Below, one piece after another: positions 3,118 through 31,344 of a DNA stretch of 64,000 nt. Made by a program: the position numbers and the translations under genes. A model generated the notes under the pieces. The model was not told the origin of the DNA. It saw nothing but the letters and a program-made list of their open reading frames with translations, and did no database searches. Each line of letters begins with the position of its first letter. The first letter of the stretch is position 1. Origin of the DNA: Ardenticatenaceae bacterium (lineage in GTDB: Bacteria > Chloroflexota > Anaerolineae > Promineifilales > Promineifilaceae); assembly GCA_027054335.1 (NCBI GenBank), contig JALUPA010000539.1, positions 904 to 64,903 of the forward strand. The letters run 5' to 3'.

Positions 3118-3360
3118 TTACCCAATTACCGAACGAAATGCTTCTGCCAGCTGCCCGGCCGTAATCGGCGCCTGCAACGTAATTTCTCCCATATGGATGA
3201 CCGGAATTGAATAGTGGTAACGTGCAAAAAGCGCCGGGTCGCCGGTGATGTCTATTTCGGTAAGTTGATGCGGGTACCTGGCTTGCAAATGGGTTAAATC
3301 CTGTTTAACTTCTTCACACAGGCCGCAGTCTTCTTTCGTGTAGAGAATAACATTGATCAA
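3118..3360 (-). CDS. glutaredoxin-like thioredoxin-fold protein (DUF836/YruB-like)
   Basis: 80-aa ORF with an N-terminal CGLC redox motif and typical beta-alpha-beta spacing (VILYTKEDCGLCEEVK...IPVI). The last codons GTA ATT GGG TAA lie inside an AATTACCC-family repeat. Confidence 0.7.
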   Translation of the reverse strand: MINVILYTKEDCGLCEEVKQDLTHLQARYPHQLTEIDITGDPALFARYHYSIPVIHMGEITLQAPITAGQLAEAFRSVIG

Positions 3361-8689: not shown

Positions 8690-9673
8690 TTATTCCCTTA
8701 CCCCTTCCTTCCGCCGTTCCGATAGTTGTTTGAGCTTGACTTTAGTCTCTCGCCAGGTAATTTTGGATAACCCCAGTTTTTGCCGGATGTCATCCTGTTC
8801 TACGCCGGTTTCCCAGTCATGCAAAGCCGAAATCCAGCGCAAATTCTCAAAAGAGAGCAGGCCGTGGGCCAGACCGGCCTCGTCACTAACGTCTCGCAAA
8901 ATATATTCCAGATTCCGGGACGTGCAGGTGAACAACGTATCTGTCGGTTTATATTGCTCCAGATATTCATCCAGCACTTCCAGCCACTCCGGGTCTAAAT
9001 CCAGTTTGCGTTCCTTGTAGCGCAAACTGGGATTCGCATAGCGAATATATAATACCGGATGCGCCTCATCTTCACGGTTTATGTGGTTGGGGACAATGGC
9101 CATCGCTTCCCCTTTCTTGATGCCGGTTTGCAGCAGTAACGTTAACAAGAGGTGGGGGCGGGCATCTTGTTTTTTGATTTCACCTTGCCGCCATTGTTCG
9201 GTGACAAGTAGAGCCTTTTCCAGTTCCTCATCTGTAGGCAAGGTGGGCAGGGGGCTGGTAACGCTGCGCTGAATGACGGCGTCTGCCGGATTTTCTGTGA
9301 GAACGCCTGTCTTGTTAAGCCAGCCAAAAAAGACTTTGAGGGTGGTTATGCGCCGGGCCAGGGATTTGGGACCGCATGATACGCCACGGCCGTCAGGCTT
9401 AGGATTCCTCAGCCAGTCGAGAAAATCATTCAAATCTTTCGTACCAATTCGGCCGATAGGCTGGCCGATACCCAGATATTCCCCCAGCAAGCGGACGTCG
9501 CTGGAAAAAGCCTTGATCGTGTTAAGGGCAAAACCTTCCTCCCGCATATGCTGTTCAAAAACACCTAGAGCGGCCTGAATCGAGGCGTCTGCGGTCAGCG
9601 ACGGCCGTTTTTCCGATTGTTCCGGCGGTAATTCTGCATCAGGAATCAGAGGTTGTTGAATATCCTCACTCAT
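8690..9673 (-). CDS. tyrosine-recombinase-like protein (XerC/D fold), apparently lacking catalytic residues
   Basis: N-terminal SAM-like core-binding region (NTIKAFSSDVRLLGEYL, LNDFLDWL). The C-terminal region aligns to Xer boxes, but box I is TGIKKGE (R->K), box II is FENLRWISALHDW, and LGLSKITWRETK has no Tyr at the nucleophile position. Confidence 0.55.
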   Translation of the reverse strand: MSEDIQQPLIPDAELPPEQSEKRPSLTADASIQAALGVFEQHMREEGFALNTIKAFSSDVRLLGEYLGIGQPIGRIGTKDLNDFLDWLRNPKPDGRGVSCGPKSLARRITTLKVFFGWLNKTGVLTENPADAVIQRSVTSPLPTLPTDEELEKALLVTEQWRQGEIKKQDARPHLLLTLLLQTGIKKGEAMAIVPNHINREDEAHPVLYIRYANPSLRYKERKLDLDPEWLEVLDEYLEQYKPTDTLFTCTSRNLEYILRDVSDEAGLAHGLLSFENLRWISALHDWETGVEQDDIRQKLGLSKITWRETKVKLKQLSERRKEGVRE

Positions 9674-9867
9674 GGGGAATCTCCTTCGTGGTAACAGGGA
9701 CGTTGAAAATAATAAGGTGAATTGATGACAAATGGTGTGTTTCGTGTAGACAGTAAAAGAATAAGCCAGTTGAGTCTATTTGTCAAGACAAAAATCCGAC
9801 AGGCCATTGGTTGACACCTGCTGAAATTGCGCTATGATTTCTGTAGATTAACAACTAAAAGCAATAG

Positions 9868-25256: not shown

Positions 25257-28145
25257 ATGCCCGCCTTACCGCCCCAACTGTACAATGAACTGGTAGACCT
25301 GTGTGTACCTTGCTTTACCCGCCCGGAAGAGCGCAAACCCCGGCTCAATCCCATCCTCAGCAGTTGGCCCGGCCGTAACCGCCTCAACTGGCGTAGTAAT
25401 CCGCGCACTTTTACTAAACAACTTCTCTATCGCCTGCCCCCGGAACATATTCAGTCGGTTGTGTACCAATTGCTGGCAGACCAATTAGAGGCAGCCCAAA
25501 TAGAGGGATTGTGCAGTTTGATTAACAGCGTCCTTGATCAAACAACGGCTGCTGCCAATGCTGGCCCTTTTGAACTGTATCACCTGGAAATTGCCTCGGA
25601 ACAGGAAGATGTTTACCAGATAGACGAACAGTTTATCCGCCTCACTTTATTACTAGATCAAGGGGAGGAAACGCAGGGCATACGTTTTGTGCCCGATAGT
25701 AAGAAGAAGGATAAATACGACAGTCTGGCTGCCCTTCTGGACGATATTGACGAGCGGGCTATCGTCCTTTTGGGCAAACCGGGCAGCGGCAAAACCACCC
25801 TGCTGCGCCGCCGCCAATGGGAACACGCCTGGGCCGAACTGGAGACCCCCAACGACCAGGTTTCATTTTTTGTTCCCCTCAACAGTTACCGCAGCCCCGG
25901 CCCCGGCCAGCCGCTCCTCGATCCTTACGATTGGCTGGCGGAAGAATGGCATATCCAATATCCTGATCTACTCGATTTTCGCACGCTTTACCAGTCCGGC
26001 CGGATGCTCCTTCTCCTGGACGGGTTAAATGAAATGCCCCACCGGGACAAGGAAGATTACCGGCAGCGCATTGGCCGGTGGCAGACGTTTTGGCAGCGCA
26101 CCCGGCGCTACGGTAATACCCTGATCTTTAGCTGCCGCAGCCTGGATTACAGCGCCAGCCTCAGCGGTACGGCCGCCCCGGTGCGCCAGGTGCGGGTGGA
26201 ACCCCTCACTGAAGAACAGATAGCCCAATTCCTCAGCCGTTATTTGCCGGAGCAAGGTACGGCCGTCTGGGAAGAACTGCGCCGCGACCCACGCCAGGTA
26301 GAATTGTTCAGCACCCCTTTTTTCCTGCGTCTGCTGGTGGGGCACGTTACTGCTAATAACGGCCGTCTCCCGGCCGGGCAGGCAGACCTGCTCACCGGTT
26401 TTGTCCGCCGCGCCTTGCAGCGGGAACTGGTGGAACACCGCCAGCAGCTTTTCACCGCCGGCCTCCTGCTAACCCAAAACGACCGCGATCAGATTATTCA
26501 AAACTGGTGGGACGAGGATGATCCTTGTGACCTGCCTGACAGCGGCCCCCTGCTGCCTCAACTGGAACATCTGGCCTACCAGATGCAGGCCGGCCGGAAA
26601 AGCGAAGAAAGCGGCCAGGTGCGCCTGCCAGAACAAAAAGCATTGGCTTACCTGCAGCCGCCGGAAATGGCTCCAGACATACTTGCGGCCGGTTGTCAAT
26701 TGAACATCCTGGACAAAGACCCGCCCAAGAAGGAAATCACCTATTTCCACCAGTTGATTCAGGAATATTTTGCCGGCCGCATTCTGGCCCGGCAGCCGGA
26801 ACCGGATCGGCTGACCGTGGCCTGGCGCAGCGCTGAAGTCACTCCCTCGCTGGCCGAAGAACTGGCCCGGCTGGAAGTGAGTGACCCTCTGCCGCCGCTG
26901 CCGGCCGGCGGTTGGGAAGAAAGCGCTCTGCTGGCGGCGGCAATGAACAGGGATCAGGAACAATTTGTTACCAACCTGGCCCAGACCAACTTGCCTTTGG
27001 CGGGCCGCTGTGCCGCCCTGCCGGAAGTGGCTGTCTCCCCGGCGCTGGAGGCGCGCCTGCGGGCTGAACTGGCCGCCCGTATGGCTGACCCCCAGGCCGA
27101 CCTGCGCGCCCGCATTGCCGCCGGTGAAGCATTGGGGCCGCTGGGCCACCCCGATTTTGAGCGGCGGGAGGGGCCGTACGGCCCGTACCTGCGGCCGCCG
27201 CTGACCCCCATCCTGGCCGGAACCTACCCTATAGGTGACGATGACGGCCAGTACGAGGATGAAAAACCGGCGCATACTGTAGAAATTGCCGCTTTGGAGA
27301 TGGCCGTGTACCCCCTGACCAACGCCGAGTACGCTCTATTTATGGCGGCCGGCGGCTACGAAGAGGAGCGTTGGTGGCAGACGGAAGCAGCCCGCGCCTG
27401 GCGGCGCGGCGCAGGCAGCAATGAAGGGCAAAAAGCATATTGGCGCGATGTACATGCGCAGTTGAAAGACATGACTGATGAAGCCATACAAAATTTGTCC
27501 AATATGACGCCGGAACAAGTTGAAGGATTCTTGCAAATCAAACATTTTTCTGCGGAAGAGATGGAAAAACAGGTTGAAAAATGGTATCCCACCGGCAAAG
27601 TTCATACACAGCCGGAATATTGGGATGACGGCCGTTTCAACCAACCCTTGCAGCCGGTGGTGGGCATTACCTGGCATGAAGCGCGGGCCTATTGCGCCTG
27701 GCTTTCAGGGCAAACGGGGGAAACATACGATCTGCCCACGGAAGCGGAATGGGAAGCAACGGCGCGGGGCAAAGCGGGCCGCACCTACTCGTGGGGTAAA
27801 AAGTATGACGCCGCCCGCTGTAACACCTTTGAAACCCACATCCGCCATACCACCCCGATAGGTGTTTTCCCCGACGGCCGTACCCCGGAAAAGGTGGCAG
27901 ATATGAGCGGTAACGTGTGGGAATGGACGTCTACCATTTATAAACCCTATCCTTACGCTGTGGACGACGGCCGTGAAGACCCATCAGACCCCGATTCCAG
28001 GCGCGTCTTGCGCGGCGGCTCGTGGGACGACGATCAGCACTACGCCCGCGCCGCTTATCGCTTCCACGGCAATCCAGGCAACCGTTACGGCAATGTCGGT
28101 GTCCGGGTGTGTCGGCGTGCCGTTCCCCATCTCAACGCCCTCTGA
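25257..28145 (+). CDS. DGR variable protein: NACHT/STAND P-loop NTPase with C-terminal FGE-sulfatase (C-type lectin fold) domain
   Basis: Walker A LLGKPGSGKTTLL and Walker B LLLLDGLNEM, with NACHT-like downstream helices. The C-terminal FGE/SUMF1 domain includes YPLTNAEYALFM, VVGITWHEARAYCAWL, GNVWEWT and LRGGSW. The VR occupies the last ~48 codons. Confidence 0.9.
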   Translation: MPALPPQLYNELVDLCVPCFTRPEERKPRLNPILSSWPGRNRLNWRSNPRTFTKQLLYRLPPEHIQSVVYQLLADQLEAAQIEGLCSLINSVLDQTTAAANAGPFELYHLEIASEQEDVYQIDEQFIRLTLLLDQGEETQGIRFVPDSKKKDKYDSLAALLDDIDERAIVLLGKPGSGKTTLLRRRQWEHAWAELETPNDQVSFFVPLNSYRSPGPGQPLLDPYDWLAEEWHIQYPDLLDFRTLYQSGRMLLLLDGLNEMPHRDKEDYRQRIGRWQTFWQRTRRYGNTLIFSCRSLDYSASLSGTAAPVRQVRVEPLTEEQIAQFLSRYLPEQGTAVWEELRRDPRQVELFSTPFFLRLLVGHVTANNGRLPAGQADLLTGFVRRALQRELVEHRQQLFTAGLLLTQNDRDQIIQNWWDEDDPCDLPDSGPLLPQLEHLAYQMQAGRKSEESGQVRLPEQKALAYLQPPEMAPDILAAGCQLNILDKDPPKKEITYFHQLIQEYFAGRILARQPEPDRLTVAWRSAEVTPSLAEELARLEVSDPLPPLPAGGWEESALLAAAMNRDQEQFVTNLAQTNLPLAGRCAALPEVAVSPALEARLRAELAARMADPQADLRARIAAGEALGPLGHPDFERREGPYGPYLRPPLTPILAGTYPIGDDDGQYEDEKPAHTVEIAALEMAVYPLTNAEYALFMAAGGYEEERWWQTEAARAWRRGAGSNEGQKAYWRDVHAQLKDMTDEAIQNLSNMTPEQVEGFLQIKHFSAEEMEKQVEKWYPTGKVHTQPEYWDDGRFNQPLQPVVGITWHEARAYCAWLSGQTGETYDLPTEAEWEATARGKAGRTYSWGKKYDAARCNTFETHIRHTTPIGVFPDGRTPEKVADMSGNVWEWTSTIYKPYPYAVDDGREDPSDPDSRRVLRGGSWDDDQHYARAAYRFHGNPGNRYGNVGVRVCRRAVPHLNAL
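27998..28126 (+). repeat. DGR variable repeat (VR)
   Basis: 129-nt match to 28290-28418 with 12 mismatches, all opposite TR adenines. Weaker homology (IMH-like) extends to about 28139. Confidence 0.9.
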
Positions 28146-28289
28146 TCTCTGGTTGGCGGGCGTAGCGGTAGCGTAGTCCCGCCCCCGCGCGTTAGCGCGG
28201 TCGCTGCAAATTTTCAAATTTTGTACTCTCCTGATTTTCAGTTAAACTTGACTCAGGTACGCATCATAGTACCTGGGGCAACCTGGCAA

Positions 28290-28418
28290 CAGGCGCGTCT
28301 TGCGCGGCGGCTCGTGGAACAACAATCAGCACTACGCCCGCGCCGCTTATCGCAACAACAACAATCCAGACAACCGTAACAACAATGTCGGTGTCCGGGT
28401 GTGTCGGCGTGCCGTTCC
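28290..28418 (+). repeat. DGR template repeat (TR)
   Basis: Non-coding copy of the VR in which the variable codons are AAC/AAT (read as [25 protein letters not shown]). Located 145 nt downstream of the target stop. Confidence 0.9.
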
Positions 28419-28731
28419 ACACCTCAATGCGTTTCCTTTTTCCTGGGGTTTCCGAACTCTCCGGCCTCTCGTCAGGTCGTGTGCTGGATTGGAACCGGGC
28501 GGCTGCCCCACCATAGGCAGACTGCTTCCAGTTTATGCCCGCCGGTTACGGCTTGCGGGATGCGGCGCGGGAAGAGTTGAGATGGCGCAGGTTGGTCCCG
28601 TCTGTACGTAGCTGCGGCGGTATGGAGCGCCGCCGGCGTCAGGCGCATATTCAAACCCGGGCGCGGCCTGGATTCGCTCCCGCCGCGCCCGCTCCATTTA
28701 GCCCCGTGCCTGGCGCTTCTGTCAATTTACT

Positions 28732-29079
28732 CTACAGATGAGCCGTTTGCTTAATCCAGCCGCCCAATAAGCGGCCAATCTCGGCCACCATGCGGCTGAC
28801 GTGTTCAAACTGTCCTACAGACAACCAGCGCCACTGGAACGCCAGGCGCAAATACAGCCGCACCTTGTCCAGGCAGGCGTCTGCCCTTTTCAAATGGCGC
28901 AGCCGTACCTTGTCCTCGTACACTTGCGCCTCCAGAATCGCTTCCTGAAAATCCAGCGTTGCTGCCATCAATCTTTGGGTAACTGTGCTGCGATACAGCT
29001 TAGGAAAACCTTCTGATTTGGGTAAAAGCCAATCCAACAAATCAAATGTGCGCGTAAAAATGATCATTTCTGATGACAT
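28732..29079 (-). CDS. avd: DGR accessory variability determinant (Avd, four-helix-bundle protein)
   Basis: 115 aa. The C-terminal [11 protein letters not shown] parallels Bordetella bAvd EVGRILGSWI, and the helix-bundle heptad pattern is present. GAGGAA lies 5 nt upstream of ATG 29079. The gene is on the opposite strand to TR and RT. Confidence 0.8.
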
Positions 29080-30157
29080 CCTGTTTCCTCATATCACAAA
29101 CTGGGAAAATTTGCTAAAAGCGTATTACAAAGCAGCCCGCGGCAAACGAGGGCGTCAGGCTGCCGCCGCCTTTGAATACAAGCTGGCAGACAACCTTCTC
29201 ATTTTACAAGATGAACTGCGTCAGGGCCGCTATAAACCCGGCGCGTACTGTCACTTCGTCATCCGTGAACCGAAACGCCGCCTGATCAGCGCCGCCCCCT
29301 TCCGGGACAGGGTCGTTCATCATGCCTTGTGCCACGTCATCGAACCGCTCTTTGAAACACGTTTTCACCCCCACAGTTACGCCAACCGGGCAGGAAAGGG
29401 CACACACCGGGCAATTGATCAATTACAAGCATTTGCCCGCCATTACCGCTATGTGCTGCGCCTGGATATTGTGCAGCATTTCCCTTCTTTGGATCACGCT
29501 CTCCTTATGCAGGAACTGTTCCGTGTCATCCGAGATGAACAGGTACGCGGGTTAGTAGACGCCATTTTGCAAAGCGGCGCCGGTGTGTTGGCTGACGAGT
29601 ACCACATGGTATATTTTCCGGGCGACGATCTATTTGCCATTAACCGGCCACGGGGTCTGCCCATCGGCAACCTGACCAGCCAGTTTTGGAGCAACTGTTA
29701 TCTGAATCCGCTGGACTGGTTTGTGACGCGGCAGTTAAGCTGCCCGGCTTTCCTGCGCTATGTGGACGATTTCGCCCTGTTTTCTTCTAATAAACAGCAG
29801 CTCTGGCAGTGGCGGGAACAAATCATCACTTTCCTGGCCGGCCTGCGCCTCACCATTCATGAAAGCAGCGCCCAGGTCATGCCGGTCAATAGTGGCATTC
29901 CCTGGTTGGGTTTTATTGTCTATCCCACATACCGTAAGCTAAAACGGCGCAATATCGTGCAGTTTCAGCGGCGATTGGTACACAATATAACTCTGTACCG
30001 CCGGGGCGACATCTCTTTTGCCGAGTTAGACGCCAGCGTTCAGGGTTGGATTAATCATGTGCGTTATGGGAATACCTGGGGGCTGCGGGAACACATTTTC
30101 CAGCAGCCTGGGAATGCAGTTCCCAGGTTGCTACTGCGGGCAGAAAGGCCATATTAA
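29060..30157 (+). CDS. DGR reverse transcriptase
   Basis: Aligns with Bordetella Brt from the N-terminus ([19 protein letters not shown] versus ITTWENLLDAYRKTSHGKR). It has the DGR-specific motif LPIGNLTSQ and the catalytic YVDD. Start set at ATG 29060. Confidence 0.9.
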
Positions 30158-30198
30158 CTAATCTGCTGAGCATCCCGCCCCAACCACGGATGATGATC

Positions 30199-30351
30199 GT
30201 AGGGGCGGGACGGCGCGGTGCGGTCTTGGGCAAACAAAACGATGTTGTTCCGCGCCGTCTCGCCCGGTGGCGGCCGTGTGTGGGGCGAGACAGGCGGGAG
30301 AGAAGGTGTTGGTGAATGGTAAAGGTGTTTTCCCGCCTGTCCCGCCCCTAC
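30199..30351 (+). repeat. 153-bp GTAG...CTAC structured element (REPIN-like), copy 1
   Basis: Termini are GTAGGGGCGGGAC / GTCCCGCCCCTAC. Three nested internal hairpins (GGACGGCGCGG/CCGCGCCGTC, GTCTCGCCC/GGGCGAGAC, CAGGCGGGA/TCCCGCCTG). Near-identical copy at 30918-31071. Confidence 0.9.
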
Positions 30352-30378
30352 TGTGAATTGTGTATGGTGGATAATCGA

Positions 30379-30921
30379 ATGAATAAATATGATCCGAATA
30401 AACATCGGCATTCCATTCGACTGCGCGGGTGGGATTACCGGTCGCCCGGCCTGTATTTTGTGACAATTTGTACCCATGAACGACAAAACCTGTTTGATAA
30501 CCTGGATTTCCGAGACATTGCGATTTATGCTTTAGGCCGCATTCCCCAACAAAAACATGCCCGGCATGTGCTGGTAGACGAATCGGTGGTGATGCCTAAC
30601 CATGCCCATGCTATTTTGGCGTTTACTGGTTATCCGGAGCAGGCGGATATGACTCGCACCCGCGGAAATTTTGAGAATGCGTTGGCAGGATCATTGGGTG
30701 TGGTTGTGGGGCGGTATAAAACGGCCGTAACTACCCGTATCAACAAATTACGACACAGCAAAGGGGCAAAGGTGTGGCAGCGCGGTTATTATGAACGTAT
30801 CATTCGCAATGAACGAGAATTGCAGGCCACGCAACAATATATTATCAACAATCCGGCACGTTGGGCCGAAGATCGGGATAACCTGGGTATTCTCCTCGCC
30901 AAAATGACATACCATCCGTAG
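30379..30921 (+). CDS. REP-associated tyrosine transposase (RAYT, IS200/IS605 Y1 family)
   Basis: HUH motif (VMPNHAHAIL) and catalytic-Tyr helix (WQRGYYERIIRNERELQATQQYIINNPARW). Start at ATG 30379, because the listed 30316 start lies inside the flanking repeat. The stop TAG is part of the GTAG of the downstream element. Confidence 0.85.
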   Translation: MNKYDPNKHRHSIRLRGWDYRSPGLYFVTICTHERQNLFDNLDFRDIAIYALGRIPQQKHARHVLVDESVVMPNHAHAILAFTGYPEQADMTRTRGNFENALAGSLGVVVGRYKTAVTTRINKLRHSKGAKVWQRGYYERIIRNERELQATQQYIINNPARWAEDRDNLGILLAKMTYHP

Positions 30922-31071
30922 GGGCGGGACGGCGCGGTGCGGTCTTGGCGGAAACAAAACGATGTTGTTCCGCGCCGTCTCGCCCGGTGGCGGCCGTGTG
31001 TGGGGCGAGACAGGCGGGAGAGAAGGTGCTGGTGAATGGTAAAGGTGTTTTCCCGCCTGTCCCGCCCCTAC
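30918..31071 (+). repeat. 154-bp GTAG...CTAC structured element (REPIN-like), copy 2
   Basis: Direct repeat of 30199-30351. By visual alignment the two copies differ by only a 1-nt indel and a few substitutions. Confidence 0.9.
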
Positions 31072-31236
31072 GACAATGGGGGCAAATGGGCAAACCAAAG
31101 TTGACTTCCCTGGCTTCTTTTGCTACGATCTTCGGCATGAAGACACATTTGGTTATTCAAGCCGCAGCCGCCGCCCGGACAAATCGTCTGGCGTGTGGGC
31201 TTGTCTGACTGTTTCCAGCATAAACACAGCATTTAG

Positions 31237-31270
31237 CCGCCAGATTGAGTACCCAGTCTGGCGGTTTTTT
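31237..31270 (+). terminator. intrinsic terminator
   Basis: CCGCCAGA-(12 nt)-TCTGGCGG followed by TTTTTTG. Lies downstream of the RAYT unit and upstream of alaS. Confidence 0.6.
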
Positions 31271-31344
31271 GTTGCTGGGGTACAATTTCAGGATCAAGGT
31301 GACAGGCAGTTGAGAAGTGCCTGTCACCTAAAAATGGAGTGATA

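Follow-up and report, generated by a model that had tools for sequence, protein, structure and literature searches.

What ties a small transposase gene to the two structured repeats that bracket it? The window, by which we mean the whole stretch of 64,000 nt from an Ardenticatenaceae bacterium (GCA_027054335.1, contig JALUPA010000539.1), carries such an arrangement at positions 30199-31071: a gene for a Y1 transposase of the HUH type, flanked on each side by a repeat that begins with GTAG and ends with CTAC. The original prediction, made from this sequence, took the gene for a REP-associated tyrosine transposase (RAYT) lying between its own GTAG-tagged palindromes, REP standing for repetitive extragenic palindromic element. 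The motifs of the protein, the match of its predicted fold to Escherichia coli TnpA-REP (4ER8) and the flanks of the gene back this proposal. We conclude with high confidence that the locus is a REPtron, a RAYT gene bracketed by cognate REP elements. What was observed comprises the anatomy of the repeats, the motifs and predicted fold of the protein, covariation in the hairpins, co-occurrence with RAYT genes in ten genomes, and the presence of the same repeat pairs without a RAYT gene.

Two direct copies of an inverted hairpin pair

Copy 1 (153 nt) and copy 2 (154 nt) stand in direct orientation (Table 1) and are set apart by two substitutions and a 1-nt indel; chance cannot account for 98% identity over 153 nt. 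Both start with GTAGGGGCGGGAC and end with GTCCCGCCCCTAC, its reverse complement; when checked on the sequence, the predicted coordinates and GTAG...CTAC ends of the copies were exact. The 13-mer of the copy ends occurs four times in the window, only at those ends. Allowing two mismatches added two matches, the chance expectation being 2.25. A match 14 nt upstream of copy 1 is a possible relic of an older REP (Table 1); since 2.25 such matches are expected per window, a chance match is also plausible. The near-match at 28176-28188 was rejected as a REP, as it belongs to a GC hairpin 3' of the target gene of a diversity-generating retroelement (DGR).

Each copy consists of two inverted REP-like hairpins, A and B, arranged tail-to-tail with their GTAG feet outward. 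A hairpin has a 16-bp stem and a 30-35-nt loop, about 67 nt in all, and doublets measure 149-172 nt. Stems and loops occupy 30203-30265 and 30283-30347 in copy 1, and 30922-30985 and 31003-31067 in copy 2; the loop of hairpin A is 31 nt long in copy 1 and 32 nt in copy 2. Read on the plus strand, hairpin B is GGGCGAGACAGGCGGG, a 33-nt loop, CCCGCCTGTCCCGCCC and CTAC, the doublet thus ending in ...GTCCCGCCCCTAC. Both hairpins have the outer 9-bp stem GGGCGGGAC/GTCTCGCCC, that of B being an inverted copy of that of A. The inner 7 bp read GGCGCGG in A and AGGCGGG in B, with no complementarity between the two.

Each stem contains a G·T mismatch, located on the plus strand in hairpin A and on the minus strand in hairpin B (A·C on the plus strand). 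The calculated folding energy of hairpin A is -26.3 kcal/mol on the plus and -23.5 kcal/mol on the minus strand, that of hairpin B -22.0 kcal/mol on the minus and -20.2 kcal/mol on the plus strand. Each hairpin is more stable, by 2-3 kcal/mol, on the strand with its GTAG than on the other strand.

These measurements bear out the claim that the elements are longer and more structured than classical REPs. Three further nested hairpins had also been counted in each copy, which was overstated: the conserved hairpins are two per copy. The direct order of the copies, singled out as unusual, is real, but its unusualness shrinks with the finding that each copy is an inverted REP pair. Either flank already contains REPs in both directions, just as the E. 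coli REPtron does, so that 'direct' flanks are little surprising.

The minus-strand ORFs (open reading frames) at 30154-30486 and 30748-31098, described earlier as spurious look-alikes, are present and resemble each other only through the peptide derived from the repeat. At least three reading frames of the repeats are open, which encourages spurious or over-long ORF calls. The translations of three open frames of the element were compared with a database of 5.8 billion proteins, and no spurious ORF from another copy was found at E <= 0.001.

Table 1. Features of the REPtron in the window and RAYT genes of the homologous loci (identities of the latter refer to the RAYT protein of the window)
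Feature	Position or accession	Strand	Description
Possible relic of an older REP 3' end	30172..30184	+	ATCCCGCCCCAAC, 2 mismatches to GTCCCGCCCCTAC; 14 nt 5' of copy 1
Upstream REP doublet (copy 1)	30199..30351	+	GTAG...CTAC, tail-to-tail heterodimer; 98% identity to copy 2
REP hairpin A, copy 1	30199..30265	+	GTAG 30199-30202, 5' arm GGGCGGGACGGCGCGG 30203-30218, 31-nt loop, 3' arm CCGCGCCGTCTCGCCC 30250-30265
REP hairpin B, copy 1	30283..30351	-	inverted; minus-strand reading GTAG + GGGCGGGACAGGCGGG, 33-nt loop, CCCGCCTGTCTCGCCC
RAYT / TnpA-REP-like Y1 HUH transposase	30379..30921	+	180 aa; HUH motif H75-A-H77; predicted catalytic Tyr Y154 in YIINNP
Downstream REP doublet (copy 2)	30918..31071	+	hairpin A 30918-30985, inverted hairpin B 31003-31071
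RAYT of L004	GCA_017993775.1, JAGOMA010000004.1		80% identity; between hsdS and hsdM of a type I restriction-modification (R-M) system
RAYT of L010			77% identity
RAYT of L094			79% identity
RAYT of L155			78% identity
RAYT of L164			67% identity; after class I tRNA synthetase gene
RAYT of L165			62% identity; EAD7-FGE gene immediately upstream
RAYT of L166			75% identity
RAYT of L169	GCA_027025935.1		85% identity; directly after NACHT-FGE gene
RAYT of L171			86% identity; contig too short for flanks
RAYT of L133			50% identity; second repeat family

The encoded protein resembles TnpA-REP

The HUH and Tyr motifs expected of a Y1 transposase are present on alignment, with Y154 as the predicted single catalytic Tyr of a C-terminal Y-x3-N-P motif. 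Residues H75, H77, W133, Y154, N158 and P159 are invariant in 29 homologues (58-86% identity), and Q134 and R143 are at least 90% conserved in the same alignment. The sequence match to E. coli TnpA-REP is weak (E=0.12); it pairs HAH with HMH and QQYIINNP with DYIYINP, aligning Y154 to the Tyr of the latter. In the segment VWQRGYYERIIRN, W133, Q134, E139 and R143 align to W94, Q95, E100 and R104, the GTAG-contacting residues of the E. coli protein (PMC6006769). R140 stands at the position of E. coli H101, a substitution reported before (PMC6006769).

The AF2 model of the protein (pLDDT 83.2, pTM 0.82) was compared with the PDB by Foldseek. The first-ranked structure was 4ER8_A (E 9e-7, TM 0.56/0.60, rmsd 4.7), with IS200/IS605-type TnpAs (ISDra2, IS608, IS200) behind it at ranks 2-30. 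A database search returned 6152 relatives; among the matches listed all come from Chloroflexota, and several sources name them RayT.

The start at 30379 is favoured over the upstream ATG at 30316, because the homologues begin MNK.. (MNKYDP...). The version produced by the gene caller (P0001, 201 aa) uses the ATG at 30316, which lies in the loop of hairpin B of copy 1. At the other end of the gene the TAG stop codon (30919-30921) is formed by the last three bases of the GTAG of copy 2, as had been noticed from the sequence.

The hairpins are conserved as paired structures

Folding and covariation analysis had been proposed as a check of the original prediction. Altogether 106 distinct hairpins were oriented by GTAG and aligned (alignment A1), and the alignment upheld the paired helix. 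Across the 16 bp, 98.6% of the cells were paired, compared with 84% in column shuffles and 46-54% with slid partners, and compensatory double changes were found in 10 of the 16 pairs. RNAalifold returned the same 16-bp helix from these hairpins and predicted no conserved secondary structure in the loop.

The two parts of the stem behave differently. The inner 7 bp occur in 12 fully complementary versions, whereas the outer 9 bp are near-invariant; the G·T (G·U) pair is kept in 97 and GTAG in 98 of the 106 hairpins. The inner-facing arms GTCTCGCCC/GGGCGAGAC are conserved although the metagenome search pattern left them unspecified. Loop length stays at 30-35 nt in hairpins from many genomes, with few constraints on the sequence of the loops; A loops and reverse-complemented B loops showed only loose homology.

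The minimum-energy fold of a doublet pairs its ends in a cloverleaf or four-way structure. This fold was rejected, as L166 and L072 pair within hairpins and not end-to-end. The outer stems of A and B are no longer alike in L166, yet pairing is retained within each hairpin, and L072 and L094 show compensatory changes within hairpins. Such compensation favours two independent hairpins over an end-to-end fold. The GTAG...CTAC polarity was found in 36 of the 54 arrays and the opposite polarity in none, the metagenome search pattern having required such a layout.

Homologous RAYT genes have the same flanks in different neighbourhoods

Ten further loci with homologous RAYT genes were examined (Table 1). 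All nine that are long enough (L004, L010, L094, L155, L164, L165, L166, L169 and L133) carry doublets on both sides of the gene in the same direct order, and some flanks hold extra B units (A-B-B, A-B-B-B). Their gene neighbourhoods share nothing beyond the RAYT gene and the doublets.

This recurrence in ten genomes, around homologues down to 50% identity, speaks against the idea that some structured non-coding region (for instance a terminator, an attenuator or a small RNA) was recently duplicated on the spot and has no functional tie to the transposase. That idea would fit the presence of only two copies in 64 kb, the strong folding of each copy (z about -6), the G·T pair, which in RNA would be G·U, and the position of the copies in 3' and 5' untranslated regions. 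However, it does not account for the retention of GTAG in the hairpin alignment, and the Rfam search found no family above threshold; its sub-threshold matches to microRNA hairpins were generic hairpin noise. The A·C of hairpin B on the plus strand indicates that the doublet is symmetric at the level of DNA, not of the transcript. We regard a duplication of this kind as very improbable.

The RAYT stop codon coincides with the TAG of GTAG in four of the ten loci of family 1: the window, L004 (5544-5546), L164 (10547-10549) and L166 (10547-10549). In a fifth locus, L165 (10540-10564), GTAG is mutated to CATG and the ORF runs on into the REP (...HPHGRDGAG), a mutated relic of the junction. The four loci and this relic mark the gene/repeat junction as ancestral in RAYT family 1. 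The stop codon in GTAG is a family trait and not an accident.

A systematic use of GTAG as stop codon by neighbouring genes was also considered and rejected: 12 of 87 outer ends close frames of at least 80 codons, compared with 12 of 174 controls, an excess of only about twofold. An unusual case was seen in L004 (2440-3390), where four tandem doublets with a 183-nt period lie 3' of hsdR and the hsdR ORF takes its TAG stop from the GTAG of the first one. Beyond the array follow two further copies of the final ~45 nt of the hsdR coding sequence: one that again finishes in CCGGTAG, joined to a different hairpin of the GTAG...CTAC form (3252-3325), and one that closes with what is presumably the original ending, ...GTCAAGTAA. 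Insertion of repeats at the hsdR 3' end seems to have duplicated and replaced the C-terminus. In the same locus hsdS and the RAYT gene too stop at the TAG of a GTAG.

The flanks of the window's repeat family yielded no target-site motif (<=0.36 bit per position). A second doublet family (L131-L163; e.g. L146:9060-9273 and L154:2506-2719) has inner stems AATCGGC/AATGCGG, and its RAYT is 50% identical to that of the window (L133). Outside GTAG this second family has some 24 nt of conserved inverted flanking sequence (consensus TGCAGTTTTACAATTAATCACGT), which the window's family lacks. These flanks could be a palindromic target or part of a longer element resembling a miniature inverted-repeat transposable element (MITE).

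The neighbours of the unit in the window raise the question whether it is an accessory of the DGR, for example processing DGR cDNA or template. The ORF of the DGR reverse transcriptase (RT) ends at 30157, which puts the predicted direct 3' position of the RAYT unit at a distance of 41 nt. The RAYT of L169 follows a homologous NACHT-FGE gene and that of L165 an EAD7-FGE gene. However, no template repeat (TR), Avd or RT gene lies beside the RAYT of L169, seven other contexts are devoid of DGR components, and the spread of doublets is independent of DGRs. A DGR beside the unit is no general feature and recurs only in the nearest relative; an accessory role is hardly credible.

In the window the corresponding stretch (25257-30157) holds the full DGR cassette, with the TR at about 28290-28430, Avd at 28732-29079 on the minus strand and the RT at 28985-30157. 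In L169 (536-4804) the NACHT-FGE gene has a 3' end like a variable repeat and is followed by the RAYT unit, with no TR, Avd or RT between them.

Dispersed doublets and possibly single-copy RAYT genes

Doublets with no RAYT gene in the stretch examined occur in no fewer than ten Chloroflexota genomes and on 31 of the 33 metagenome contigs. The scan of a genome collection (596 Gb) with the 16-mer GGGCGRGACAGGCGGG gave at least 120 matches, mostly chance matches in GC-rich genomes; it yields examples, not counts per genome. The metagenome-assembled genome (MAG) SJ142 has RAYT-less doublets on two contigs (L065, L076). Two doublet sites were seen in L095, 6 kb apart, and likewise two in L138 and in L150. 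A window-specific 24-mer from loop B had no match in the metagenome scan.

The closest relative found by way of AlaS (91% identity) is L167 (GCA_012329075.1, JAAXQA010000087.1). At 9574-9729 it carries a solo doublet that is 85-88% identical to the window copies, loops included, with GTAG mutated to GTGG. The doublet lies at the orthologous site and is followed by an alaS leader 88% identical to that of the window. Upstream of it, fragmented IS110 transposase genes are found in place of the DGR and the RAYT gene; this replacement marks the region upstream of alaS as a rearrangement hot spot. The dispersed doublets of the relatives together with the solo copy of L167 indicate that the element is no private local duplication, answering the concern, raised at the outset, that it might occur only here.

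A peculiar derivative was noticed in MAG BJ8 (L067:4391-4577, JACTMP010000042.1): three tandem 60-nt repeats of the 5' arm and loop of B without the 3' arm, followed by one complete hairpin. They lie inside an open frame of 1497 codons and may be an intragenic REP-derived repeat.

The RAYT gene itself appears to be confined. Look-up by exact protein found it at a single place in a 4.5-Mb contig, ERZ25072985 contig_11, and in a 2.9-Mb contig, JAWKPA010000012.1, and no second paralogue from these contigs was found among the best 120 of the 6152 relatives. RAYT identity is 67% where AlaS identity on the same contigs is 73%, and 62% where it is 68%. That RAYT divergence parallels AlaS divergence suggests vertical descent.

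These numbers bear on another explanation, in which the whole 873-bp doublet-tnpA-doublet unit is an autonomous IS200-like insertion sequence (IS). The direct copies would be its left and right ends, both read on one strand like those of IS200/IS605, and solo doublets would be MITE-like derivatives. Several observations agree with it. The flanking copies are direct, like the end hairpins of IS200/IS605. The neighbourhood differs in every genome examined and in one is a type I R-M operon (hsdS/hsdM); the junction of RAYT stop and GTAG is conserved, as if gene and repeat travelled together; and the closest relative, L167, lacks a RAYT gene at the alaS site. Set against these are the single place of the gene in each of the two long contigs, the absence of a paralogue among the best 120 matches, and a divergence that tracks that of AlaS. 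The predicted fold and the sole NCBIfam match point to TnpA-REP. Moreover, both ends are the same element (98% identity), with no distinct left and right, and each holds both REP orientations. We therefore consider an autonomous IS improbable.

We hold it unlikely, if somewhat less so, that the family is an intermediate between IS200-type IS and domesticated RAYT/REPIN systems. Whole units, with the direct doublets as their ends, would then move while solo doublets spread; doublets would donate TAG stops (as to hsdR, hsdS and the RAYT gene in L004) and serve as points of recombination between variable cassettes such as DGR, type I R-M and toxin-antitoxin loci.

Relation to known systems

The REPtron of E. 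coli K-12 (tnpA-REP, 4ER8, with bacterial interspersed mosaic elements, or BIMEs, of Y and Z REPs) is the closest in protein fold and shares the Y1 HUH type and the order of motifs. In both systems GTAG stands at the foot of a hairpin whose stem is imperfect, with an obligatory mismatch in E. coli, and two REP sequence types form inverted pairs on both flanks of the gene (PMC3479197, PMC6006769). They differ in that protein similarity is only E=0.12, and in that the E. coli hairpins are ~35 nt long with small loops and a bulge, compared with ~67 nt and a single G·T here. Near-identical direct flanking doublets and a RAYT stop within GTAG set the present locus apart.

A doublet of inverted REPs is known as a BIME in E. 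coli and as a REPIN in Pseudomonas (PMC6006769, PMC3116915). The REPIN-RAYT systems of Pseudomonas and Enterobacteria (Bertels & Rainey; RAYT groups 2/3) resemble the window's system in the inverted-REP doublet as unit, the flanked RAYT, apparently single-copy here too, and the intergenic solo doublets (PMC3116915, PMC5581495). The REPs of a REPIN pair with each other into one long hairpin, whereas here each REP forms its own long hairpin. Doublet density is low here (none elsewhere in 64 kb), and the host phylum is Chloroflexota.

By description only, RAYT Group 4, or TnpA-Y1 subclass 2.4 (Cyanobacteria, Chlorobia, Caldilineae), is also similar. A Chloroflexi class is among its hosts (PMC5581495). 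It has 'long canonical' REPs with three G-C pairs at the foot of the stem, and 'double-foot' REPs that carry GT[AG]G and C[TC]AC at opposite ends (PMC6006769), and the elements described here agree with both descriptions. Unlike in this subclass, the RAYT genes here showed no REP inserted within them. No Chloroflexi genus is named in the supplementary tables of PMC6006769. The search model of that study allowed loops of 2-5 nt, or a bulge and a second stem, so that hairpins of the present size would have been missed. A full-text literature search found no paper tying REPs to Anaerolineae.

IS200/IS605 elements (IS608, ISDra2 TnpA) share the HUH/Y1 fold, subterminal imperfect hairpins with a 5' guide tetranucleotide, and end hairpins on the same strand. 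They are multicopy, have distinct left and right ends and often carry tnpB. In contrast, the gene studied here was found at a single place by the look-ups in long contigs, the same element stands on both of its flanks, and the repeats also occur at other places that lack the gene.

Weighing the REPtron and a possible mechanism

Several results weigh against the REPtron reading. The matches of the protein to its families fall just short of threshold: NF047646 REP_Tyr_transpos, the sole NCBIfam match, scored 76.2 bits (cut-off 80), and PF01797 Y1_Tnp, the sole Pfam match, 20.3 (cut-off 23). The search patterns themselves account for part of the invariance seen in the outer stem. Published REPs are 20-40 bp long with stems of 5-13 bp and loops of 2-20 nt (PMC3733652), and the hairpins described here, with their 16-bp stem and 30-35-nt loop, exceed the published ranges (PMC3733652, PMC6006769). 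A sequence search found no third copy in the 64-kb window, and no extra copies were found within ±10 kb of the RAYT gene in L164-L166; doublet density thus appears to be low. Finally, catalytic activity, the cleavage site and the transposition pathway are properties that we infer by analogy with the E. coli enzyme. On balance, the system belongs to a known class of bacterial repeats, here in a Chloroflexota family not described before, and is atypical in the size of its hairpins and in the recurrent RAYT stop at the TAG of GTAG.

E. coli TnpA-REP is a monomer that binds the foot of the REP hairpin and the 5' GTAG on single-stranded DNA (PMC3479197). Its action depends on the mismatch in the stem, and it cleaves at a CT dinucleotide that pairs with A3-G4 of GTAG (PMC3479197). 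The features that do not vary among the present hairpins match what TnpA-REP reads, and the residues involved are retained, which suggests the same mode of action. On single-stranded DNA, a hairpin would be extruded on the GTAG strand, and the RAYT would read GTAG, the foot of the stem and the mismatch. Cleavage and rejoining nearby by the RAYT could then copy or move doublets to new intergenic sites. As direct repeats, the doublets may also serve as substrates of homologous recombination. The left and right neighbours differ between the window, L167 and L169, for which recombination between dispersed doublets would be the simplest explanation.

Other features near the unit

The alaS gene starts ~270 nt downstream of copy 2. 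The stretch between them (31101-31338) has three features that are 88% conserved in L167. A promoter-like site stands at 31101-31129; it is followed by a hairpin that resembles a terminator and ends in a T-run (31235-31266 plus TTTTTGTT), and then by another, perfect hairpin at 31297-31329. Together these features suggest an alaS leader or attenuator; the region had no match in Rfam.

On the other side of the unit a GC-rich hairpin (GGCGGGC...GCCCGCC-like) lies at 28155-28183, right after the stop codon of the DGR target gene. A comparable G/C hairpin occupies the same place in L169 (3713-3735).

Significance

To our knowledge, work on REPs and RAYTs has to date been done almost entirely on Proteobacteria. 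The locus described here extends these systems to Chloroflexota of the Anaerolineae type, with a REP architecture (16-bp stem, fixed G·T, ~32-nt loop) that would escape the published detection rules. The family is a natural dataset in which the parts that are probably read by the protein (GTAG, outer stem and mismatch, all invariant) can be told from the inner stem, which merely pairs and covaries. For annotation it matters that doublets create spurious ORFs and, in this locus, an over-long RAYT start. Doublets also mark breakpoints between variable cassettes, and recognising them aids the reading of rearranged regions such as the DGR-alaS junction.

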